Below the pieces are notes generated by a model. The model did no database searches. It worked only from the letters and a program-made list of their open reading frames with translations, and had not been told where the DNA came from. Both the position numbers and the translations under genes were made by a program. This document shows, in pieces, positions 2,593 through 14,544 of a DNA stretch of 14,544 nt. Every line of letters begins with the position of its first letter. Within the stretch, counting starts at the first letter, position 1. The stretch is from Pseudomonadota bacterium (lineage in GTDB: Bacteria > Pseudomonadota > Alphaproteobacteria > Rhodobacterales > Rhodobacteraceae), in NCBI GenBank assembly GCA_038530925.1, contig JBCBCG010000109.1, forward strand, positions 1 to 14,544, given 5' to 3'.

Positions 2593-3603
2593 TTAACCGC
2601 GGCGGTTGAGAAATGCGGCGACCGCGCGGGCGGCGGCGACTTCCGCGGTCACCGCGCCCGCCTCCACCGCCGCCGCGGCCTCCGCAAACGCCGCCGCCGC
2701 CGCGGTATCGCGGTCGAACGCCTCGAGGAGACCGCGTTCCAGCGCATAGCGCAGCCATTTCGCCGATTGCGCGCGCCGGCGCGCCTCCCGCCATCCTTCT
2801 TCCGCGCGCCAGGCGTCGATGGCCTGCATCCGCTCCCACGCCGCCTCAAGCCCCGCGCCGGTGGCGGCGGAAACCGCCATCGCCGACGGGCAGGCTTCCG
2901 GATCGCCCGGACGCTTGCGCAAAAGCCGAAGAGCGCCGGCGTAATCGGAGGTGGTCGCCTGAGCCTGGGCTGTGAGATCGCCGTCGGCTTTGTTCACCAA
3001 GATCAGATCGGCCAGCTCCATGACGCCGCGCTTGACGCCTTGAAGCTCGTCCCCGCCCGCCGGCGCCAGGAGCAGCACGAAGAGATCGGTCATATCCGCG
3101 ACCATCGTCTCGGACTGGCCGACGCCCACCGTCTCGACCAGAACGGCGTCGAACCCCGCCGCCTCCGCCAACAGGATCGCCTCGCGCGTGCGCCGCGCCA
3201 CGCCGCCCAGCGCGGCGCCCGCCGGCGAAGGGCGGATATAGGCGTTCGGATCGCGCGCCAGGCGCTCCATCCGGGTTTTGTCGCCCAGGATCGAACCGCC
3301 CGTCCGCGCCGAGCTTGGATCCACCGCCAGCACCGCGACCTTGCGGCCCTTCGCTGTCAGCATGCCGCCGAAGCGCTCGATGAAGCTTGATTTGCCCACG
3401 CCCGGCGCGCCGGTCAGCCCGATCCGCAGCGCGCCGCCCGTAACCGGCGCGACCCGCTCCAGCAGCGCTTCGGTGGCGGCGCGGTGATCATCGCGCTGCG
3501 ATTCCGCAAGCGTGATCGCCTGGGAGAGCGCCCGGCGCTCGCCGCGCCGGAGCCTTGCGGCGAGCGTCGCGGCCGCCAGCGCCGGATCGAAAGGCCGCAT
3601 CAC
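2593..3603 (-). CDS. meaB: Methylmalonyl-CoA mutase-associated GTPase MeaB (ArgK / LAO-AO transport ATPase family G-protein chaperone)
   Basis: The translation contains the P-loop [15 protein letters not shown], the DxxG motif and NKADG (G4), plus the characteristic MeaB/ArgK core ([10 protein letters not shown]...[12 protein letters not shown]). The first codon is GTG at 3603 followed by ATG at 3600, so either is a possible start. Confidence 0.88.
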
Positions 3604-3777
3604 GCCGCTCCTTTGAACGCGGCCTGCGCTCGGCCGCAGCGGCGCGGCGCCGAGCTTCCGAGCCCTCCGCGCCGCATTCGCGCCCCGTTTGGCCCCGATC
3701 GCTGCGTCAATCGCATCATCCGCGCGCGGCCCGCTCCCGTCTCCCGCGCCGCGGCGCCTGCTAGGAGATCTCGGCCC

Positions 3778-4575
3778 ATGCTGTTTCGCGCTCTCTCGCC
3801 TTGCAAACCGTCCTCATCGCTCCGCGCCGGCGCGCTGATCGCCGCGCTTTTCGCCGCCGTCCCGCTCGCCGCCGCCGCCAACGCCGCGCCGGAGCGCCCA
3901 GCGGAGGTCAAACACCGCTACAAGGCTTATGTCGGCGGCGTGCTGATCGGCAAAGCCTCTCTGACGACGCGCTTCACCGCGGAGGGCTATAGCAGCGAAG
4001 GCAAGCTCGAGACCGACGGCGTCGCCGGCTGGTTCGTCGCCGCCAAAGCCCAAGCCTCCGCGCTCGGCGCGCTCGACGCCTCGGCGCTTGAGCCCGAGCG
4101 CCTGGATGTGACCGCCGACAGCGATGGCGAAGCCTGGCGCATGAGCATCGCCTTCAGCGGCGGCGCGCCCTCGGAGGTGTCGGCCGAGCCGCCGCTGCGA
4201 AGCCGCAAATGGGACATCGATCCCGCTTCGCAAACCGGCGCGCTCGACCCGATCAGCGCCATCGTCCGCGCCATGACCGGCCCGATGACGAGCGCGAGCG
4301 CCGCCGCGCCCTGCGAGCGCACATTGCCGGTTTTCGATGGCCGCAAACGCTACGACATCGTGCTGGAGGAGCAGATCGACGAGCGCGTGAAGGACGGCGT
4401 CACCATCATCGAATGCGCCGCGCGCTGGACGCGGGTCTCCGGCTTCAAGCCGAAGATGATGCGCAAGCCCGACTATCCCTTCACCGCGCGGTTCGCGATC
4501 CGCGACGGGTTGACCGTGCCGGTGCGCATCTGGGGCGACACGGAGTTCGGCGGCGCTGTGGTGGTTCTCCGCTGA
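3778..4575 (+). CDS. Secreted DUF3108-family protein (signal peptide plus DUF3108-like domain)
   Basis: An AGGAG Shine-Dalgarno sequence lies 8 nt upstream of the ATG at 3778. The N-terminus [36 protein letters not shown] is a typical Sec signal peptide. The body ([14 protein letters not shown]...TDGVAGWF...) resembles DUF3108. The six-frame ORF beginning at 3484 is an Arg-rich upstream extension that overlaps the divergent meaB start and is unlikely to be translated. Confidence 0.65.
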
Positions 4576-4814
4576 CGCGCAAGCGGCTGGCCGACCACTC
4601 TCGGCAGGGGAAATTGCGCGCGAATTCAAGCGCCTCGGCCACAGGGCGCAATTTTCGGCCGCAGCCCTCTTGCAGCGCGACCCCCCGCGGCCACATTGGC
4701 GCGGCGTCTTTCATGGCGTCCGAGCTTCGACGGCGGCGGTTCTGCAGGCCGCTCCGGCGCGCGCCGCTCTGCGGTTGCGTGTGCGCAGGCCGGAAACGCA
4801 TGGCGATCGCACCC

Positions 4815-4889
4815 GTGGGTTTAGCTCAGCGGTAGAGCACTCGGCTGCGGGCCGAGCGGACGGGGGTTCGAGTCCCTTAACCTACTCCA
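4815..4889 (+). tRNA. tRNA with an Arg(ACG)-like body but an atypical anticodon loop CUGCGGG (apparent anticodon GCG). The 3' CCA is encoded.
   Basis: Manual cloverleaf: acceptor 4815-4821 pairs with 4879-4885 (two G-U pairs). D-arm is GCUC/AGCGGUAGA/GAGC. Anticodon stem CUCGG (4840-4844) pairs with CCGAG (4852-4856). The variable loop is 5 nt. T-arm is GGGGG/UUCGAGU/CCCUU. Discriminator U4886 is followed by CCA 4887-4889. The anticodon arm and variable region are near-identical to bacterial tRNA-Arg(ACG) (ACUCGG CUACGAA CCGAG CGG.C), but positions 34, 37 and 38 are all G. Confidence 0.7.
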
Positions 4890-4915
4890 ACGGTACGTCC
4901 ACCAAAACCGGGCGT

Positions 4916-4943
4916 GGAGGTTCGACTCCTCCAAGCGACTTAG
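4916..4943 (+). other. Orphan tRNA 3' fragment: a T-arm (GGAGG UUCGACU CCUCC) plus a 7-nt acceptor-like tail. No matching 5' half is present.
   Basis: The sequence GGAGGTTCGACTCCTCC at 4916-4936 matches the canonical tRNA-Arg(ACG) T-arm GGAGGTTCGAATCCTCC at 16 of 17 positions. There is not enough upstream sequence for a full cloverleaf, and no complementary 5' acceptor (GTCGCTT) is found nearby. Confidence 0.4.
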
Positions 4944-5231
4944 CATCGCTCCAGACTACGGGTCTTCGGAGCTCTGTCCTGGCGGCCTTCGAACGCGCCT
5001 CGGCGTGGGAGAGGAACGCCTGCGCCAAAGCGGCCCTGCGCCGCGGATGACGGCGAAGCCGGCTCCGGGCCAGCGCTGAGGCGCCCGCCCGCAGCCCGCG
5101 ACGCCCGCTCGCCGCGGCCCGCGCGCGGCGGCGTCGCGGCCGAGCTCCGGAGATTCCCGCGCCTTTCGCAGGCGCCCTGACTTCCAAGGCGGCGGGCCCG
5201 GCCCGCCGACAGACAAGACGAGCCGAGACCC

Positions 5232-6425
5232 ATGGCAAAGACGCAAACGCCGATCCTGCCCTCCGCGCCGCGCACCTTGCTCGACGCGATCATGGGCCGC
5301 CAACGCATCATCCTGTCGGAGAATGAGCGCGCGGTACTCCTGGTGAAAGGCCGGCTTGAGGACATCCTCGGCCCCGGCGAACATGTGGTCGCCTACCCCG
5401 ATGCGACAGTGGAGCGGCATAACGTCGAGCTGCCGACCTTCTCCTCCGCCTATGAGCGCGTGCTGATGAACCAGCGGCCCGGCCTTGTGGAGCGGCATCT
5501 CACCGAATTCACCGTCGGCGAGGACGAGATCGGCGTGATCGAGCGCGATGGCCGCATCTTCGCGTTGCTGAAACCCGAAGGCCGCAGCCTGCTCTGGACC
5601 GACTCTGGGCCCTGGAGCCTGACGCGCATCAAGATCCCGGCGGATCTCGCCGTGGAGCGCGATTTGGCCAAGCGGCTTGAGCGGTTTCAGGCGAACGACA
5701 AAGTCAGACGCTTCGAAGTCGCCTCGCATCAGGCGGGCTTGCTCTTCGTCGACGGCGCGCTGCAACGCCGTCTCCCGCCAGGCGCGCACGCGTTTTGGTC
5801 GGTCGGCCCGCGGCTGGAGATGAAGCTGATCGATCTGCGCGCCGTGCCGCTCGATGTGCATGGGCAAGAGATCTTGACGCGCGACCGCGTCTCGATCCGC
5901 GTCAATCTCGCCGCGGAGTATCGGGTGGTGGATCCTGAGAAGGCGGTCGCGGCGGTCGAGGATTTCCGCGACACGCTCTACCGCTCGGTCCAGTTCGCCT
6001 TCCGCAGAACGCTCGGCGCGCGGACGCTGGATGAGATCCTGGAGGAGATGGTCGGCATCGACGCGGATGCTGATGCGGCGCTGCGCGCGGATATGGCGGA
6101 GATCGGGCTCGATGTCGGCGAGATCGCTCTCAAGGATGTGATCCTGCCCGGCGATATGCGCGAGATCCTCAACCAGGTCGTCACCGCCGAGAAACAGGCT
6201 CAAGCCAACGTGATCAAGCGGCGCGAAGAAACGGCGGCGACGCGGTCGCTGCTGAACACGGCGAAGGTGATGGCGGAGAACCCGATCATGCTGCGCCTGA
6301 AGGAGCTCGAAGCGCTGGAGGCGATCGCCGAGAAAGTGGACCGCTTGGTGATTCATAACGGCGCTAAAGGCTTGATGCAGGATGTGGCGCGGCTCGTCGA
6401 GCCGGAGGATGACGAGCCGCTCTGA
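5232..6425 (+). CDS. Slipin-family SPFH/band-7 domain protein (stomatin/prohibitin-like), soluble, with a duplicated N-terminal sub-domain
   Basis: The C-terminal half (LDVHGQEILTRDRVSIRVNLAAEYRVVDPEKAV...LKDVILPGDMREILNQVVTAEKQAQANVIKRREETAA...) is a clear SPFH/band-7 core with the coiled-coil tail. Two N-terminal segments (ENERAVLLVKGRLEDILGPGEHVV and HQAGLLFVDGALQRRLPPGAHAF) look like repeated SPFH starts. No transmembrane segment is evident. Confidence 0.75.
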   Translation: MAKTQTPILPSAPRTLLDAIMGRQRIILSENERAVLLVKGRLEDILGPGEHVVAYPDATVERHNVELPTFSSAYERVLMNQRPGLVERHLTEFTVGEDEIGVIERDGRIFALLKPEGRSLLWTDSGPWSLTRIKIPADLAVERDLAKRLERFQANDKVRRFEVASHQAGLLFVDGALQRRLPPGAHAFWSVGPRLEMKLIDLRAVPLDVHGQEILTRDRVSIRVNLAAEYRVVDPEKAVAAVEDFRDTLYRSVQFAFRRTLGARTLDEILEEMVGIDADADAALRADMAEIGLDVGEIALKDVILPGDMREILNQVVTAEKQAQANVIKRREETAATRSLLNTAKVMAENPIMLRLKELEALEAIAEKVDRLVIHNGAKGLMQDVARLVEPEDDEPL

Positions 6426-7001: not shown

Positions 7002-8432
7002 TCAGGCGGCGCCCAGCGCCGCCTGATAGAATGCGCCGAACGACCGGATCTCCTTGATCGCGGCCTCCAAGGCGCGCCAATCATCCTGCTCGGCGATGGG
7101 CGCCCAAACACCCTCGACGCGATCGATCAACATGGTGGTCGGCTCCAGCCGCCGCGCATATGTCGAGCTGAGCGCGGCCGCTGCGCCTGGGAGAGCCGGC
7201 GCCGCGCGCAAGGCGGCGATCGCCTCCGCCCAAACCGGCGCCTCGTAGGTCTCAGCGATCGGGCTCGCGACGATGCGCCCGACCTTCGCCCCGCCCATCA
7301 AATCGAAGAACACGCGCTCGAAAGGCGGCTTGGTCTCACGCATCGCGGTGTAGAACAGCGTGTTGCGCTCCATCGCCGCCGCCTCATCCTCCGCGCTCAG
7401 CAGCAAGCGCCGATGCGTCGCCAGCGCCGTCTCCCGCACCGCGCGCGCGAAAAACGTCTCGAGGCTCGCTTGCAAAGGCTTCAGCGTCGTGAAGGGCAGC
7501 AGGCACTCCGCCAGGCGCGCCAAATTCCACCCGAGCGCGTCGAGCTGGCGCCCATAAGCATACAGACCGGTCTCGTCGAAATAGGCCGCGGTGAAGCCCG
7601 GCTCGAACAGCGGCAAAAAGCGCCACGGCCCGTAATCGAAGCTCTCGCCAGTGATGACGATGTTGTCGGTGTTGAGGACGCCGTGCACGAACCCTGCGGC
7701 GGTCCATTCCGCGCCGAGCCGCGCCACCGCGCCGACAACGCTGTCATAGAGCGCGACGACAGGATCCGGCGCCGCGGCCGCGTCAGGATAATAGATCTCG
7801 ATCGCGTAATCGATCAGGCGGCGCAGCGCCTCGGTCTCTTCATGCGCGGCCAGGCGCTGGAAAAGGCCGATGCGCAAATGGCTGTAGGAGAGACGCGTCA
7901 ACACGGCCGAGCGCGTGGGCGAGGGCTCGTCATTGCGCTCCAGCGCCTCGCCCGTCTCGATCAAGCTGAAGCTGCGCGAGGTCGAGACGCCCAGCGCTTC
8001 AAGAAGCTCGGTCGCCAAAACCTCGCGCACGCCGCCTTTCAGCGTCAGGCGCCCATCGCCGGAGCGCGACCAGGGCGTTCGGCCCGAGCCCTTCGTCGAG
8101 AAGTCGAGCAGCCGATCCGTGCCGGCCTCGCGCATCTGCGCGTAAAGAAAGCCGCGGCCGTCGCCGAGGTCGGGATTGTAATGGCGGAACTGGTGGCCGT
8201 GATAGCGCAGCGCCAGCGGCTTCGGGATGTTGTCGGGCAACGGCTCGAACCGCGCGAAATGGGCGATCCACTCGGCGTCGGTCAAACCATCCAGACCGAT
8301 CGTCGCCGCAGCGCGGTCGTTCCGGAAGCGAATCGCGCTCTCGGGAAACCGGGCGGCGTCGACAACGTCGAAAAACGCCGGCCCAAGGCTCGGATGGCGC
8401 GGATCGGGGCGGTAGGCGGATGAAACGGGCAT
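7002..8432 (-). CDS. selO: Protein adenylyltransferase SelO (YdiU/UPF0061 family)
   Basis: From the ATG at 8432-8430 the translation MPVSSAYRPDP...LALRYHGHQFRHYNPDLGDGRGFLYAQM...GVLNTDNIVITGESFDYGPWRFL... contains the hallmark SelO motifs. The length of 477 aa matches the family. The 793-aa six-frame ORF is an Arg/His-rich upstream extension that runs through the divergent echA gene and is rejected. Confidence 0.9.
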   Translation of the reverse strand: MPVSSAYRPDPRHPSLGPAFFDVVDAARFPESAIRFRNDRAAATIGLDGLTDAEWIAHFARFEPLPDNIPKPLALRYHGHQFRHYNPDLGDGRGFLYAQMREAGTDRLLDFSTKGSGRTPWSRSGDGRLTLKGGVREVLATELLEALGVSTSRSFSLIETGEALERNDEPSPTRSAVLTRLSYSHLRIGLFQRLAAHEETEALRRLIDYAIEIYYPDAAAAPDPVVALYDSVVGAVARLGAEWTAAGFVHGVLNTDNIVITGESFDYGPWRFLPLFEPGFTAAYFDETGLYAYGRQLDALGWNLARLAECLLPFTTLKPLQASLETFFARAVRETALATHRRLLLSAEDEAAAMERNTLFYTAMRETKPPFERVFFDLMGGAKVGRIVASPIAETYEAPVWAEAIAALRAAPALPGAAAALSSTYARRLEPTTMLIDRVEGVWAPIAEQDDWRALEAAIKEIRSFGAFYQAALGAA

Positions 8433-8702
8433 GCCGCGTGAGGTCGGCGCCGGCGCTGGAAAGTCAACCGGTCGCAGCGCGCATTTGCGCCGCCCCGCCC
8501 GCCGGATCACGACCATCGACCGAGACGCTCGCCTGTCGATCACAGGCGGCCAAGCGCTCGCTCCCCGCGAGACTGTCGAACGGCCCGCCGCGAGGCGTGA
8601 TGCGATCAGCGCTTCGCTTTGGCTGCGCTTTGGCGCAAAATCACTAAGCAGCGCCCGAGCGGCGCTTTCATTCGCATCAAGACGATCGCTGGGAGAGCTG
8701 GA

Positions 8703-9518
8703 ATGGACGGAGACGCCGCGCTGTCGGAGACGCCGCTGCTGATGGAGACGAATGGCGGCGTCGCGACGCTGACGCTGAACCGGCCCAAAGCGATCAACGC
8801 GCTGTCCGAAGAGATGCTGGCGGCGCTGCAAGGCGCGCTTGATGAGATCGCCGCGGATCGCTCGGTCAAAGCGGTGATCCTGCGCGGCGCCGGCGCGCAT
8901 TTCTGCGCCGGACATAATCTCAAAGAGATGACCGCGCGGCGCGCGGATGAAGATGGCGGTCGCGCCTATTTCGAGGCGCTGTTCGCGACTTGCGCCACGA
9001 TGATGAAGACGGTGGTGCGCCTGCCGCAGCCCGTGATCGCCGAGGTCTCGGGCATCGCCACCGCCGCGGGCTGCCAGCTCGTCGCGGCCTGCGATCTCGC
9101 CGTCGCCGGGCGGAGCGCGCGCTTCGCCACCTCCGGCGTCAATATCGGCCTTTTCTGCGCGACGCCGATGGTGGCGCTCAGCCGCAATGTGGCGCGCAAG
9201 CAAGCAATGGAGATGCTGCTGCTCGGCGATTTCGTCCCCGCCGCCCGCGCTGCGGAGATCGGGCTCGTGAACCGCGTCGTTCCCGATGATCAGCTCGAGG
9301 CCGAGACCCGCGCCATGGCCGAGGCGATCGCGAGCAAATCGCCGGTCGCGCTCAAGATCGGCAAGGAGGCCTTCTACGCCCAAGCCGAGATGACGCTCGA
9401 TGAGGCCTACGCCTACGCCGGCCGCGCGATGGCGGAGAACATGATGGCCCGCGACGCCAAAGCCGGCATCGGCGCTTTCATCGAGAAGAAGCCGACGCCT
9501 GACTGGACGGGAGAGTGA
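8703..9518 (+). CDS. Enoyl-CoA hydratase/isomerase (crotonase superfamily) protein
   Basis: Crotonase-fold motifs are present (LTLNRPKAINALS, ILRGAGAHFCAGHNLKEM, oxyanion hole GIATAAGCQL, C-terminal AFIEKKP). The ATG at 8703 is preceded by GGGAGAG. The 28 upstream residues in the track ORF lie in the divergent promoter region. Confidence 0.85.
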   Translation: MDGDAALSETPLLMETNGGVATLTLNRPKAINALSEEMLAALQGALDEIAADRSVKAVILRGAGAHFCAGHNLKEMTARRADEDGGRAYFEALFATCATMMKTVVRLPQPVIAEVSGIATAAGCQLVAACDLAVAGRSARFATSGVNIGLFCATPMVALSRNVARKQAMEMLLLGDFVPAARAAEIGLVNRVVPDDQLEAETRAMAEAIASKSPVALKIGKEAFYAQAEMTLDEAYAYAGRAMAENMMARDAKAGIGAFIEKKPTPDWTGE

Positions 9519-9617
9519 GGCGCGCGGCGAAGCTGCAATAATAAGCCCGCTGCAAGATTAAGGGTATTTCCCGCCTCCCTTCCCAAGTTAAAACTCAAGG
9601 CGAGCGAGAGAAATGAA

Positions 9618-10379
9618 ATGAGAGCTTGGATAATTGCGATCGTTGGTGCGCTTGCGGCAGTTGTAGGAATCGTGGCCGGCACCCTAGACCTTCGCGATCG
9701 CTTTTTTGGTGAAGCGCCGCCTGCGGCCGGATTAAATAACACACAATTTGATGAGTTTATATTACTTGAGCCTGAGGAGTTTGACATATACGCCAACAAA
9801 ACAAAAGACGATCTTTTCATATTTCATGGGAAATTTTTGGAATATGAAGAAATGAATGCCCTGGAGTATGACTATATCTCAAAAGAACTTCGAGTAATTT
9901 TTAAAAACGGCGATGTGGGCATTCTTGACCTCCGAGTCTCTTGCGCAGTAGAGCCATATATTCAGGAGGCGGCCGCAGTGAAAATAGTGAGGACGGAAAA
10001 TCGAGAGCCCGTTGACGGAACCACCTTACCCGTTGAGCAGGTGTACCCGCGATCAAAAATCAGAAAGCCAGCACGTGACAGACAAGGTTACTTTGGCGCA
10101 ACTGTAAGAGATTTCCAGATTGGAGACCCGAAAGACTTTGCACAGAATCTTGGCTTTCCTGGAGCCGTGATTGTAGAACTCACTAAAGGCGGACCCGCAG
10201 CGCTTCATGGTTTCCAGGCTGGAGACCGAATTATAAAGTTCGATGACCGAATACTAAAAGATAGGAAAGAGTTTGTGGAGTGCATAAAGCATTCGCCACC
10301 TGAGGTTGAGTTTGGGTTTTTTGTCATTCGAGGCAATGAAAAAAAATTGATAAAAGCCAAACTTGGATCTGTGAAATAA
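9618..10379 (+). CDS. Membrane-anchored PDZ-domain protein of 253 aa (N-terminal TM helix, ~140-aa unknown domain, C-terminal PDZ). Encoded in a low-GC insert.
   Basis: The N-terminus MRAWIIAIVGALAAVVGIVAG is a single TM/signal-anchor. The C-terminus (GYFGATVRDFQIGDPKDFAQNLGFPGAVIVELTKGGPAALHGFQAGDRIIKFDDRIL...EVEFGFFVIRGNEKKLIKAKLG) fits a PDZ fold with the GLGF-like carboxylate-binding loop (NLGFPG). Codon usage is AT-rich, with many AAA, AAT, GAT and TTT codons, quite unlike the flanking genes. Confidence 0.75.
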   Translation: MRAWIIAIVGALAAVVGIVAGTLDLRDRFFGEAPPAAGLNNTQFDEFILLEPEEFDIYANKTKDDLFIFHGKFLEYEEMNALEYDYISKELRVIFKNGDVGILDLRVSCAVEPYIQEAAAVKIVRTENREPVDGTTLPVEQVYPRSKIRKPARDRQGYFGATVRDFQIGDPKDFAQNLGFPGAVIVELTKGGPAALHGFQAGDRIIKFDDRILKDRKEFVECIKHSPPEVEFGFFVIRGNEKKLIKAKLGSVK

Positions 10380-10425: not shown

Positions 10426-11412
10426 TCACTTCTCGGCTACGAAAAGCCCTACAAGATTTGAGGGCGTCACGCCGAGATGGCGCTTATAGGCGCGGCGCAT
10501 GGTTTCTTCGGAGCGGAAGCCGAAGCGGGCGGCGGCGGCCTTAAGGGTGATCTTTTGATCCAGCAACGCGTCGCGCGACGCTTCAACGCGGACGCGCTCA
10601 ACGTAACGCGCCGGCGTCTTTCCCGTTTCGGCTTTGAAGAGCCGCGCGAAATTTCGCTCCGACATATGCGCGCGCGCGGCCATGGTCGGCACGGTGTACG
10701 CGCCGCCTGGATCCTCATGAAGGGCGGCGATCAGCGCGTCGAAACGACCTTTCGCGCTTTCGACTTGTTGGCGAAGACCAGCGCTGAATTGGCTCTGACC
10801 GCCGCGGCGCTTGATCGGCAACACCAGCAGACGCGCAATGCGCAGCGCCTCCTTGCGACCGAGATCCCGCTCCACCAAAGCAAGCGCCAGATCGACGCCC
10901 GATGAAACTCCCGCGGAGGTCCAAACGTCGCCGTGCTCGATGAAGATCTCGTCCGCCTGAACGTCGATGTCCGGATACTCGCGCGCGAGCCTCGCGCATT
11001 CCACCCAATGCGTCGTCGCGCGCTTGCCGGACAAAAGACCAGCCTCCGCCAGGATGAACGCGCCGAGGCACACCGAGCAGAGGCGTCGCCCGGCGCGAGC
11101 CCCTCTTTTCAGCACCGCTGAAAGCTCCATCGAACGGCGCGCCGCGAAGGCGCCGCGCCCGCCGGCGACGATCAGCGTCTGCGCCCGCGCCGCGCCGCGG
11201 AGCTCTGCCGCCGACAACGCCACGATCGTATCCGTCGCCACCGTCCCAGCCCGCTCCGCGTGGAGGCTGAGGCGGTAGGCCGCGGATCCGTCTTGGCGGC
11301 GCGCATCTGAAAAGACCTGAAGCGGTCCCGCGACGTCGAGCAGCTTCACATCGTCATAGACGATCAAAGCGACTGTCAGAGGCGAAGGCGCTTTGGCGGA
11401 ATTTGCTGGCAT
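10426..11412 (-). CDS. GlxA-family transcriptional regulator (DJ-1/PfpI-like N-terminal domain plus AraC-type HTH)
   Basis: The N-terminal domain (VALIVYDDVKLLDVAGPLQVF...CSVCLGAFILAEAGLLSGKRATTHW) has the conserved Cys of DJ-1/PfpI. The C-terminal part (MSERNFARLFKAETGKTPARYVERVRVEASRDALLD...RFGFRSEETMRRAYKRHLGVTPS) is an AraC HTH. Confidence 0.85.
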   Translation of the reverse strand: MPANSAKAPSPLTVALIVYDDVKLLDVAGPLQVFSDARRQDGSAAYRLSLHAERAGTVATDTIVALSAAELRGAARAQTLIVAGGRGAFAARRSMELSAVLKRGARAGRRLCSVCLGAFILAEAGLLSGKRATTHWVECARLAREYPDIDVQADEIFIEHGDVWTSAGVSSGVDLALALVERDLGRKEALRIARLLVLPIKRRGGQSQFSAGLRQQVESAKGRFDALIAALHEDPGGAYTVPTMAARAHMSERNFARLFKAETGKTPARYVERVRVEASRDALLDQKITLKAAAARFGFRSEETMRRAYKRHLGVTPSNLVGLFVAEK

Positions 11413-14210: not shown

Positions 14211-14471
14211 CGCGCACCCTCAACCAAGATCACAGATCGCGTCCCTCCGCGACGCGCCGCCTCTCGTCGCGCAACAAAGAGGCTGTGACCACCGCCGTGT
14301 TGTCGCGCCGCAGCAAAATGGTCGCTGCGATGCAGCAGAGCCATGGGGAGGCCCGCCTGGGCGCTGAGACCGCGGGATTGTCCGATCCGCCCCACGAGGC
14401 GAAAATCGCAATGGCCTCACGCTCTGACGCGGATAGTTTCGGGCTAAGAAGCTCGCCTTGACGCGCATTTC

Positions 14472-14544
14472 GCGCGGTCATGCGCGCGCGGGCGGGCGGC
14501 TCTTGCGCGGTCATACGCGCGCGGGCGGGCGGCTCTTGCGCGCG
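14472..14544. repeat. Tandem direct repeat with a 33-bp unit: at least 2 copies plus the start of a third, running to the window edge
   Basis: 14472-14504 GCGCGGTCATGCGCGCGCGGGCGGGCGGCTCTT and 14505-14537 GCGCGGTCATACGCGCGCGGGCGGGCGGCTCTT differ at a single position. 14538-14544 (GCGCGCG) starts another unit. Confidence 0.7.

Follow-up and report, generated by a model that had tools for sequence, protein, structure and literature searches.

Upstream of a gene coding for a slipin-family SPFH protein, a 14,544-nt stretch of Rhodobacteraceae DNA (contig JBCBCG010000109.1 of assembly GCA_038530925.1, called the window here at its full length) carries a tRNA-like sequence followed by an isolated T-arm. 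Are these pieces the leftovers of a mobile element that once integrated at a tRNA gene, as an earlier note on the sequence had proposed, or are they parts of a functional RNA? In two phyla or more, an RNA family with this layout was found to precede the genes of a single slipin subfamily, and we consider it highly probable that the region is a conserved structured RNA and not an integration scar. On balance, the segment from about position 4700 to 5231 is best read as the 5' part of the slipin transcript and as a member of a conserved structured-RNA family of about 500 nt. Its elements follow one another in the order leader, tRNA-like module M1, second module M2 or what is left of it, a hairpin or two, a multi-helix domain of about 200 nt, a linker of 70–150 nt and the slipin open reading frame (ORF) (Table 1).

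Conservation upstream of slipin genes

A search of genome contigs with the slipin protein returned one locus only; the others were obtained through protein homologues, contig look-ups and a metagenome scan. Loci L001–L012 were fetched via slipin homologues (57–69% identity), the metagenome scan added 80 loci (slipin identity 39–57%), and the position counts cover the 74 loci for which 600 nt or more of sequence preceded the gene. At every locus from L001 to L012, the slipin gene is preceded by a non-coding gap of 650–1000 nt, within which lie one or two tRNA-like genes in the same orientation as slipin. The gene upstream of this gap varies: it codes for a DUF3108 protein in the window and the syntenic L002–L009, for a DctM transporter in Neomegalonema (L010), and is a different gene again in the Mesorhizobium-type L011 and in L012. 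A T-loop motif was present on the gene strand between −700 and −180 in 73 of the 74 loci and on the opposite strand in one; ARAGORN called a tRNA in 67 of the 74, and all 20 loci sampled with Rfam gave a tRNA match and no other family. The loci belong to Alphaproteobacteria of the Rhizobiales and Rhodobacterales type and to Bryobacteraceae, which are the most distant group (Acidobacteriota, according to the NCBI name). Across these phyla, no conserved neighbour was seen beyond the RNA and the slipin gene.

The earlier note had explained the tRNA pieces by an att-type scar or recombination at a tRNA gene. The relatives share the arrangement with no such element nearby (all 11 loci fetched via slipin homologues, whether syntenic or not, and 73 of 74 loci overall), and no fetched relative was found to lack it or to carry an island; this conservation already refutes the scar. 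The fallback that the note offered, a tRNA-derived structured RNA element, turned out to be correct.

The multi-helix domain

The domain downstream of the tRNA-like modules has a real, covarying secondary structure. RNAalifold folded nine related sequences into 58 pairs in five stems, 26 of these pairs showing compensatory changes, and the covariance model R1 was built from this nine-sequence alignment. Searching with R1 gave matches in 42 loci at E < 5e-4, almost all of them full length and all 42 on the plus strand upstream of slipin; the match in the window scored 33.2 bits (E about 2e-6) and spanned the full model. Within the 42-locus alignment, 54 of the 58 pairs change on both sides, standard pairs fill 89.4% of the cells as against 63.5% after column shuffling (0 of 500 shuffles reached the observed value) and 36–48% when the partners were slid by 1–3 columns, and the covariation score is 0.58, compared with 0.19 after shuffling and about 0.1 after sliding; these counts come from a model-fitted alignment and are somewhat inflated, the margin still being large. 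A MAFFT alignment of 36 domains (A4) gave inconsistent registers for helix P1 and was left out of the counts.

By a simple helix search, the long-range helix P1 was found in nearly every locus, with 10–19 bp closing over about 180–240 nt and with arms that differ between loci yet stay complementary. Two features are invariant or nearly so in the family: (A/C)UGA opposite CGCUC(G) within P4, and the GGCCCGC motif. For the acidobacterial loci, RNAalifold gave 31 pairs, 19 of them compensatory, and the motifs CUGAAACUG and CCCGCC lie in corresponding places; the homology of the acidobacterial domain is drawn from this fold and the shared motifs, not from a model E-value. No Rfam family matched the domain in the window. 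Of the Rfam 15 families, the tRNA family (RF00005) alone reached its gathering score, and a scan of 4300–5300 at E ≤ 10 added to the tRNA only weak gntR-DTE and ceN40 matches at 4601–4744, far below the gathering scores.

The tRNA-like module M1

In the window, M1 has the acceptor stem GUGGGUU/AACCUAC with a G3:U70 wobble, U73, an encoded CCA and the loop CUGCGGG with the nominal anticodon GCG, and ARAGORN labels it tRNA-Arg-GCG. It had been described as an intact tRNA. The cloverleaf itself stands, being called by both ARAGORN and Rfam, but its identity as an ordinary tRNA-Arg was not confirmed. Arginyl-tRNA synthetase recognises A20 and A/G73 as identity elements, and M1 carries U at position 20 (D-loop AGCGGUA) and U73 as the discriminator; moreover, G37 and G38 could pair with C32, making an alternative 6-bp stem with a 5-nt loop possible. 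At the same position, the orthologues have GCG, TCG, TTG, GTT, CAG, TAG and other anticodons, unlike the conserved anticodon expected of tRNA-Arg orthologues. Its anticodon loop ranges from 5 to 9 nt with no conserved sequence, many copies having 6 or 8 nt, and the names given by ARAGORN include Arg, Gln, Leu, Asn, Cys, Phe, Tyr, Thr, Glu, Ser, Lys and 'Stop', with '???' for about 40% of the copies. M1 is not a conserved arginine tRNA.

The body of M1 resembles tRNA-Ala (GCGGAUGUAGCUCAG..GAGCGCCGG-loop-CCGGAGGUCGCGGGUUCGAnUCC..AUCUGCnCCA). When compared with E. coli genomes, M1 of the Mesorhizobium-type locus L011 matched tRNA-Ala only; M1 of the window had no match among E. coli tRNAs at E ≤ 0.01. 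The encoded CCA is invariant in M1 across loci. Among 39 CCA-ending modules, 25 have G:U at 3:70, and the neighbouring pair 4:69 is GC (19), CG (10) or AU (4); that G3:U70 is held while adjacent pairs covary indicates selection. G3:U70 is the established major determinant for alanyl-tRNA synthetase (AlaRS), as reported by Hou and Schimmel (1988) and McClain and Foss (1988), and the discriminator of tRNA-Ala is A73. Judged by these features, M1 is probably a tRNA-Ala-derived cloverleaf with an encoded CCA. Neither ARAGORN nor Rfam found a transfer-messenger RNA (tmRNA), and M1 is a contiguous cloverleaf, not one formed from two RNA ends.

Module M2 and the orphan T-arm

M2 begins 0–3 nt past the CCA of M1. 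Its acceptor stem has only 4–5 pairs and a CCA is usually absent; the D and T arms are conserved, as are C32, U33, A37 and A38 of a canonical 7-nt CU-NNN-AA loop in which NNN is close to maximal entropy (positions 34–35 near the maximum). When M2 anticodons were set by eye against the loops of M1, Ha and Hb (the latter two being hairpins) in a handful of loci, no consistent complementarity was seen, which neither supports nor disproves a specifier-like kissing interaction. A full M2 cloverleaf is present in L006 and L009, L001–L004 have three hairpins (D-like, anticodon-like and T-arm) without an acceptor stem, and the acidobacterial loci have a single, M2-like module. In the window, the D and anticodon arms are gone and only the T-arm GGAGG-UUCGACU-CCUCC remains.

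This orphan T-arm, a 17-nt hairpin (GGAGGTTCGACTCCTCC, 4916–4932) that starts 27 bases past the tRNA, is as real as the earlier note had said. Two copies of the T-loop pattern GGTTCGANTCC, at 4865 in the tRNA and at 4919 in the orphan arm, were found in the window against 0.03 expected, so that the arm is not a product of chance. It differs from the T-arm of the neighbouring tRNA (GGGGGTTCGAGTCCCTT vs GGAGGTTCGACTCCTCC) and matches the M2 T-arms of relatives, the stems of which show compensatory changes (GGAGG/CCTCC in the window, AGAGG/CCTCT in L001, GAAGG/CCTTC in L002–L004). By this comparison, the orphan T-arm is the vestige of an M2 that is decaying in the clade of the window. An old deletion, also considered before, thus holds in the narrow sense that M2 lost its D and anticodon arms in this lineage, and not as the excision of an element.

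Less remains of the other proposed fragment, GCACCCGT at 4809–4816, which had been assigned to the 5' end of a tRNA-Arg: it is a chance 8-mer. One exact copy is present in the window against 0.34 expected, 61 of 200 shuffled sequences hold at least one, the 8-mer overlaps the first two bases of the real M1 acceptor stem, and the four closest relatives have unrelated bases, GAGAAC or GGGGAT, where the alignment puts them opposite it. A direct repeat of the 3' part of the intact tRNA, as expected of att sites, was not borne out: no repeat within the window involves 4800–4960. The lack of a nearby integrase was confirmed for the 14.5 kb examined (none among the ten main ORFs by Pfam).

The small hairpin after the orphan arm (Hb) was likewise correctly recognised. 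Its equivalents in relatives have 6–7-nt loops (e.g. CUUUAAC, CUGUAAC) and precede P1, from which they are separated by a linker. A conserved ATGAC in GGATGACGG was considered as a small ORF and rejected: lengths and frames are not conserved, and L005 has no ATG. Thermodynamic folding of 4790–4985 and 4890–4985 gave z-scores of −0.4 to −0.6, which are uninformative in GC-rich sequence.

Transcription signals, leader and linker

In many alphaproteobacterial loci, a promoter-like element of the type CTTG-N17-CTATAG stands about 140 nt ahead of M1, and a conserved, structured leader comes after it. The candidate promoter of the window consists of CTTGCAG (4669–4675), a 15-nt spacer and CCACATTG (4691–4698), and lies approximately 120–145 nt before M1; a generic sigma-70 scan returned no promoter in this region of the window. 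Variants of the element were compared in L001, L003, L005 and L009 (CCCTCTTGCAG..N15..CCACATTG in the window, CCCCCTTCACA..GCCCATTT in L005, ..CCCCATTT in L009), and the candidate promoter of the window clade looks closer to the sigma-32 heat-shock type than to the Mesorhizobium-like CTTG-N17-CTATAG. The 5' leader holds a hairpin, CCGC-UCU-GCGG (4764–4774), and a conserved block, GTGTGCGCAGGCCGG (4779–4793). It is strongly conserved with L001–L004, though the slipins are just 62–69% identical, and a similar block is present in other clades.

Between the domain and the slipin start codon, the window has two linker hairpins, GCGCC-UUUCGCA-GGCGC (5159–5175) and GGCGGGCC-C-GGCCCGCC (5191–5207), followed by GACAGACAAGACGAG (5208–5222), and an AGACAAG-type element before the start codon recurs in relatives. 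No intrinsic terminator, i.e. no U-tract, was found between the RNA and the slipin ORF in the window. Several relatives have mini-ORFs of 2–5 codons with their own Shine-Dalgarno sequence 40–60 nt before the slipin start (L005, ~3396–3407; L009, ~3957–3968; L012, ~3965–3973; L028, L037, L048 and L056), with sequences such as AAGGA..ATGACCTAG, ATGCCGCCCTAG and ATGACATAG. No mini-ORF is present in the window, and L002 and L004 have instead an upstream ORF of 13–14 codons that overlaps the slipin start as ATGA.

The slipin protein

Residues 191–367 of the slipin form a stomatin-type SPFH domain, as judged by matches to stomatin in the PDB, and no transmembrane segment is predicted. The AlphaFold2 model (predicted local distance difference test score 85) consists of three N-terminal beta-rich repeats, each like the first SPFH strands, the SPFH domain and a long helix. 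Foldseek placed stomatin and HflK/C first; the major vault protein (MVP) aligned over 423–477 columns, i.e. nearly the whole chain (E about 1e-11, TM-score about 0.35). The protein has no detected RNA-binding domain, no Pfam Vault repeat and no specific NCBIfam model, and the PADLOC defence models matched neither the slipin nor its neighbours. Just downstream of slipin, some relatives have genes of the defence or toxin-antitoxin type: TIR_2 (L004, 5359–6684), Abi_C and a KAP NTPase (L010, 5478–6380 and 8249–9182) and ParDE (L006, 5307–5918).

Proposed processing of the leader and alternative explanations

The sequence evidence points, with moderate confidence, to a new structured 5' leader that is probably processed by tRNA-maturation enzymes. 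We infer that its tRNA-like modules are kept for their tRNA shape and not for decoding, as substrates or handles for tRNA-recognising enzymes. The invariant CCA, the selected G3:U70 and the position of M2 directly against the CCA suggest that M1 is released and the domain left on the slipin mRNA. In such a scheme, M1 would be cut out by RNase P and trimmed at its 3' end to give a small RNA ending in CCA, which AlaRS could alanylate via G3:U70; the cleavage would set the 5' end of the remaining slipin mRNA, starting with M2 or its remnant and the domain, and the domain could then control the stability or translation of this mRNA through a bound ligand or protein.

Several points, besides the inflation of the covariation counts, weigh against this proposal. 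That the RNA is co-transcribed with slipin and cut by RNase P, and that M1 is released and alanylated, are predictions. M2 of the window clade has no acceptor stem, so that RNase P would not cut there and the 3' end of M1 would need another nuclease. About a quarter of the M1 copies (e.g. L004, L005 and L028) do not have G3:U70, and the discriminator base varies among M1 copies, being U73 in the window and not the A73 of tRNA-Ala. No expression platform was found: 70–150 nt separate the 3' arm of P1 from the start codon, and the arm stays clear of the ribosome-binding site. Finally, L040 (42% GC) has a weak terminator-like hairpin with a T-rich tail at 1377–1391, directly after the 3' arm of P1, which could be an attenuator or the 3' end of a separate RNA.

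The latter bears on the alternative that survives best, and which we nevertheless regard as rather unlikely: one or more stand-alone non-coding RNAs could act with the slipin as a ribonucleoprotein and not as a cis regulator, comparable to the bacterial Y RNAs encoded next to rsr or to vault RNA with MVP. The terminator-like hairpin after the domain in L040 would fit this, as would the strict pairing of RNA and protein in different phyla, where the two-part module has no further conserved neighbour, and a membrane-less slipin that combines beta-repeats, SPFH domain and long helix and aligns with MVP over most of its length (423–477 columns, E about 1e-11). On the other hand, the RNA invariably precedes slipin in the orientation of the gene (42 of 42 model hits), as is characteristic of a leader; a terminator is missing from most loci, that of the window among them; no RNA-binding domain was detected in the slipin; and its top structural matches are ordinary stomatin and HflK/C. 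A bolder and quite improbable version is a bacterial vault-like ribonucleoprotein, in which a soluble SPFH cage, its domains ordered as in MVP, would cooperate with or surround the tRNA-like RNA or RNAs processed from its own leader, M1 being released as an alanine-accepting, non-decoding small RNA.

It is very unlikely that M1 is an ordinary decoding tRNA-Arg(GCG) gene that happens to stand beside an unrelated riboswitch-like leader. The good cloverleaf score, the 7-nt loop, U33, C35, G36 and the encoded CCA would be in line with such a gene, but the anticodon differs in nearly every orthologous locus, many copies have 6- or 8-nt loops, the M1 body is homologous whatever the anticodon and is tRNA-Ala-like, U20 and U73 replace the arginine determinants A20 and A/G73, and pairing of G37/G38 with C32 could shrink the loop to 5 nt. 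We give hardly any credence to the idea that M1 is a deliberately mistranslating tRNA, charged with alanine via G3:U70 and reading the codon of its drifting anticodon (here Arg CGC/CGU), perhaps under stress. The conserved G3:U70 and CCA, the 7-nt loop and U33 of about 60% of the M1 copies and the possible heat-shock-type promoter are compatible with it, but the 6- or 8-nt loops of about 40% of the copies make these unable to decode, the anticodons are patternless and include a stop anticodon (TTA, L044), and no dedicated synthetase or other factor is linked to the locus. Practically untenable is the integration or excision scar, i.e. tRNA fragments as att-site remnants of a tyrosine-recombinase element that targeted a tRNA-Arg gene: a T-arm without its tRNA 27 nt past another tRNA, and the true loss of internal parts of M2 in this lineage, are outweighed by an orphan arm that does not duplicate the 3' end of the adjacent tRNA and has no matching repeat in the window, by main ORFs without an integrase, by a 5' 8-mer at chance level, by compensatory changes in the orphan T-arm stem and by conservation of the arrangement beside slipin in about 80 loci, two phyla and differing genomic contexts.

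Other features of the window

The coordinates of the RNA elements and the slipin gene are given in Table 1. On the ten main ORFs, Pfam gave SIR2, MeaB, DUF3108, Band_7, SelO, PDZ, AraC/DJ-1, Usp and SulP matches; the ORF at 32–559 had no Pfam match. Apart from the RNA region, the genes of the window are of housekeeping types. ARAGORN also called a 100-nt tRNA-Ser(TGA) at 4385–4484 on the minus strand, which is probably a false positive: it falls within the DUF3108 ORF (3484–4575), which has a high GC content at third codon positions, and Rfam returned no match there up to E = 10. The PDZ-domain ORF (9618–10379, in the region 9413–10379) is a compositional outlier, with a GC content by codon position of 0.59/0.35/0.41 as compared to approximately 0.7/0.5/0.8 in its neighbours, and may have been acquired horizontally. 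The SelO ORF (7002–9383, minus strand) is listed with 793 aa, of which only residues 328–779 form the SelO domain; the long N-terminal extension may be spurious, stop codons being rare in such GC-rich sequence. At the end of the window, two tandem 33-nt units (14463–14528; GCGCATTTCGCGCGGTCATGCGCGCGCGGGCGG) are 85% identical, and a weaker third copy is present at 10647–10679.

Table 1. Features of the RNA region and the slipin gene in the window.
Feature	Position	Strand	Basis or remark
Candidate promoter	4669..4699	+	Inference only; coordinates read from the window sequence
5' leader segment preceding M1	4707..4814	+	Conserved with L001–L004; fold predicted
tRNA-like module M1	4815..4889	+	ARAGORN and Rfam RF00005, 61 bits
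Vestige of tRNA-like module M2	4890..4932	+	Comparison with L001–L004, L006 and L009
Conserved hairpin Hb (AGCGA-CUUAGCA-UCGCU)	4934..4950	+	Equivalent hairpins in relatives
Conserved linker CCAGACUAC directly after Hb	4951–4959	+	AGACAUAC- or GAGACUAC-type linkers in relatives
Structured domain, about 200 nt	4956..5160	+	Covariance model R1, covariation counts
Helix P1	4961–4979 / 5138–5155	+	Window helix map
Helix P2	4981–4988 / 5013–5020	+	Window helix map
Helix P4	5040–5055 / 5102–5118	+	Window helix map; internal loop AUGA opposite CGCUCG
Helix P5	5061–5075 / 5082–5096	+	Window helix map
GGCCCGC motif	~5116–5122	+	Conserved, before the 3' arm of P1
Linker to start codon	5159..5231	+	Fold; terminator scan
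Slipin-family SPFH protein gene, 397 aa	5232..6425	+	Pfam Band_7; NCBI name 'slipin family protein'

Significance and relation to known systems

If the structured-leader interpretation holds, it defines a widespread class of structured RNA and ties a membrane-less SPFH protein of uncharacterised role to RNA biology, with a regulatory element that is open to testing. A drifting anticodon together with a kept cloverleaf, CCA and G3:U70 is the pattern expected if tRNA-processing or tRNA-charging enzymes are recruited to an mRNA leader. There is also a warning for genome annotation: annotated as tRNA-Arg, Gln, Leu, Asn, Cys and others, the modules make tRNA gene counts too high, and rare isoacceptors that they suggest, such as Arg-GCG, probably do not decode. 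A search of the open-access literature for tRNA-like RNAs linked to slipin, stomatin or SPFH returned nothing relevant, and the one preprint that treats MVP homologues of bacteria deals with other taxa and other proteins. The RNA class appears to be undescribed. Structured leaders and tRNA mimicry are already known, and what appears to be new is their combination: next to an SPFH gene stand tandem tRNA-derived modules with freely varying anticodons and a conserved AlaRS determinant, together with a large domain that covaries.

One close comparison is with the tRNA-like domain of tmRNA, including the two-piece ssrA of Alphaproteobacteria, which also joins a tRNA-shaped module with G3:U70, CCA and no functional anticodon to a larger structured RNA; recognition by AlaRS and RNase P would be expected here as well. 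Unlike its counterpart in tmRNA, M1 has D and anticodon arms and forms a complete cloverleaf in one piece; there is no tag frame, and the RNA lies upstream of a protein gene. Cloverleaves ahead of an ORF are also found in the E. coli thrU-tyrU-glyT-thrT-tufB operon, where they are transcribed and removed by tRNA-processing enzymes; the tRNAs of that operon decode and have fixed anticodons, whereas here the anticodons drift, loops are often malformed and a conserved 200-nt domain follows. In riboswitches, T-box leaders and the tRNA-mimicking thrS operator, a covarying multi-helix domain with conserved internal loops occupies a fixed upstream position, as it does here, but the RNA described here has no Rfam match and its leader carries whole tRNA-like modules rather than binding tRNA. 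The mascRNA of MALAT1 and viral tRNA-like structures resemble the modules in that they mimic tRNA to attract a synthetase, RNase P or the CCA-adding enzyme and do not serve decoding; these are 3' ends of eukaryotic or viral RNAs, in contrast to a bacterial 5' leader with tandem, tRNA-Ala-derived modules. Finally, the bacterial Y RNAs (YrlA) next to rsr and vault RNA with MVP have in common with the present locus that a protein forming a cage or ring has, encoded beside its gene, a structured RNA that includes a tRNA-like module, and the modelled slipin would share an MVP-like domain order, a similarity that may just reflect the common SPFH fold; they differ in that there is no Ro/TROVE protein here and the RNA is always in leader orientation.

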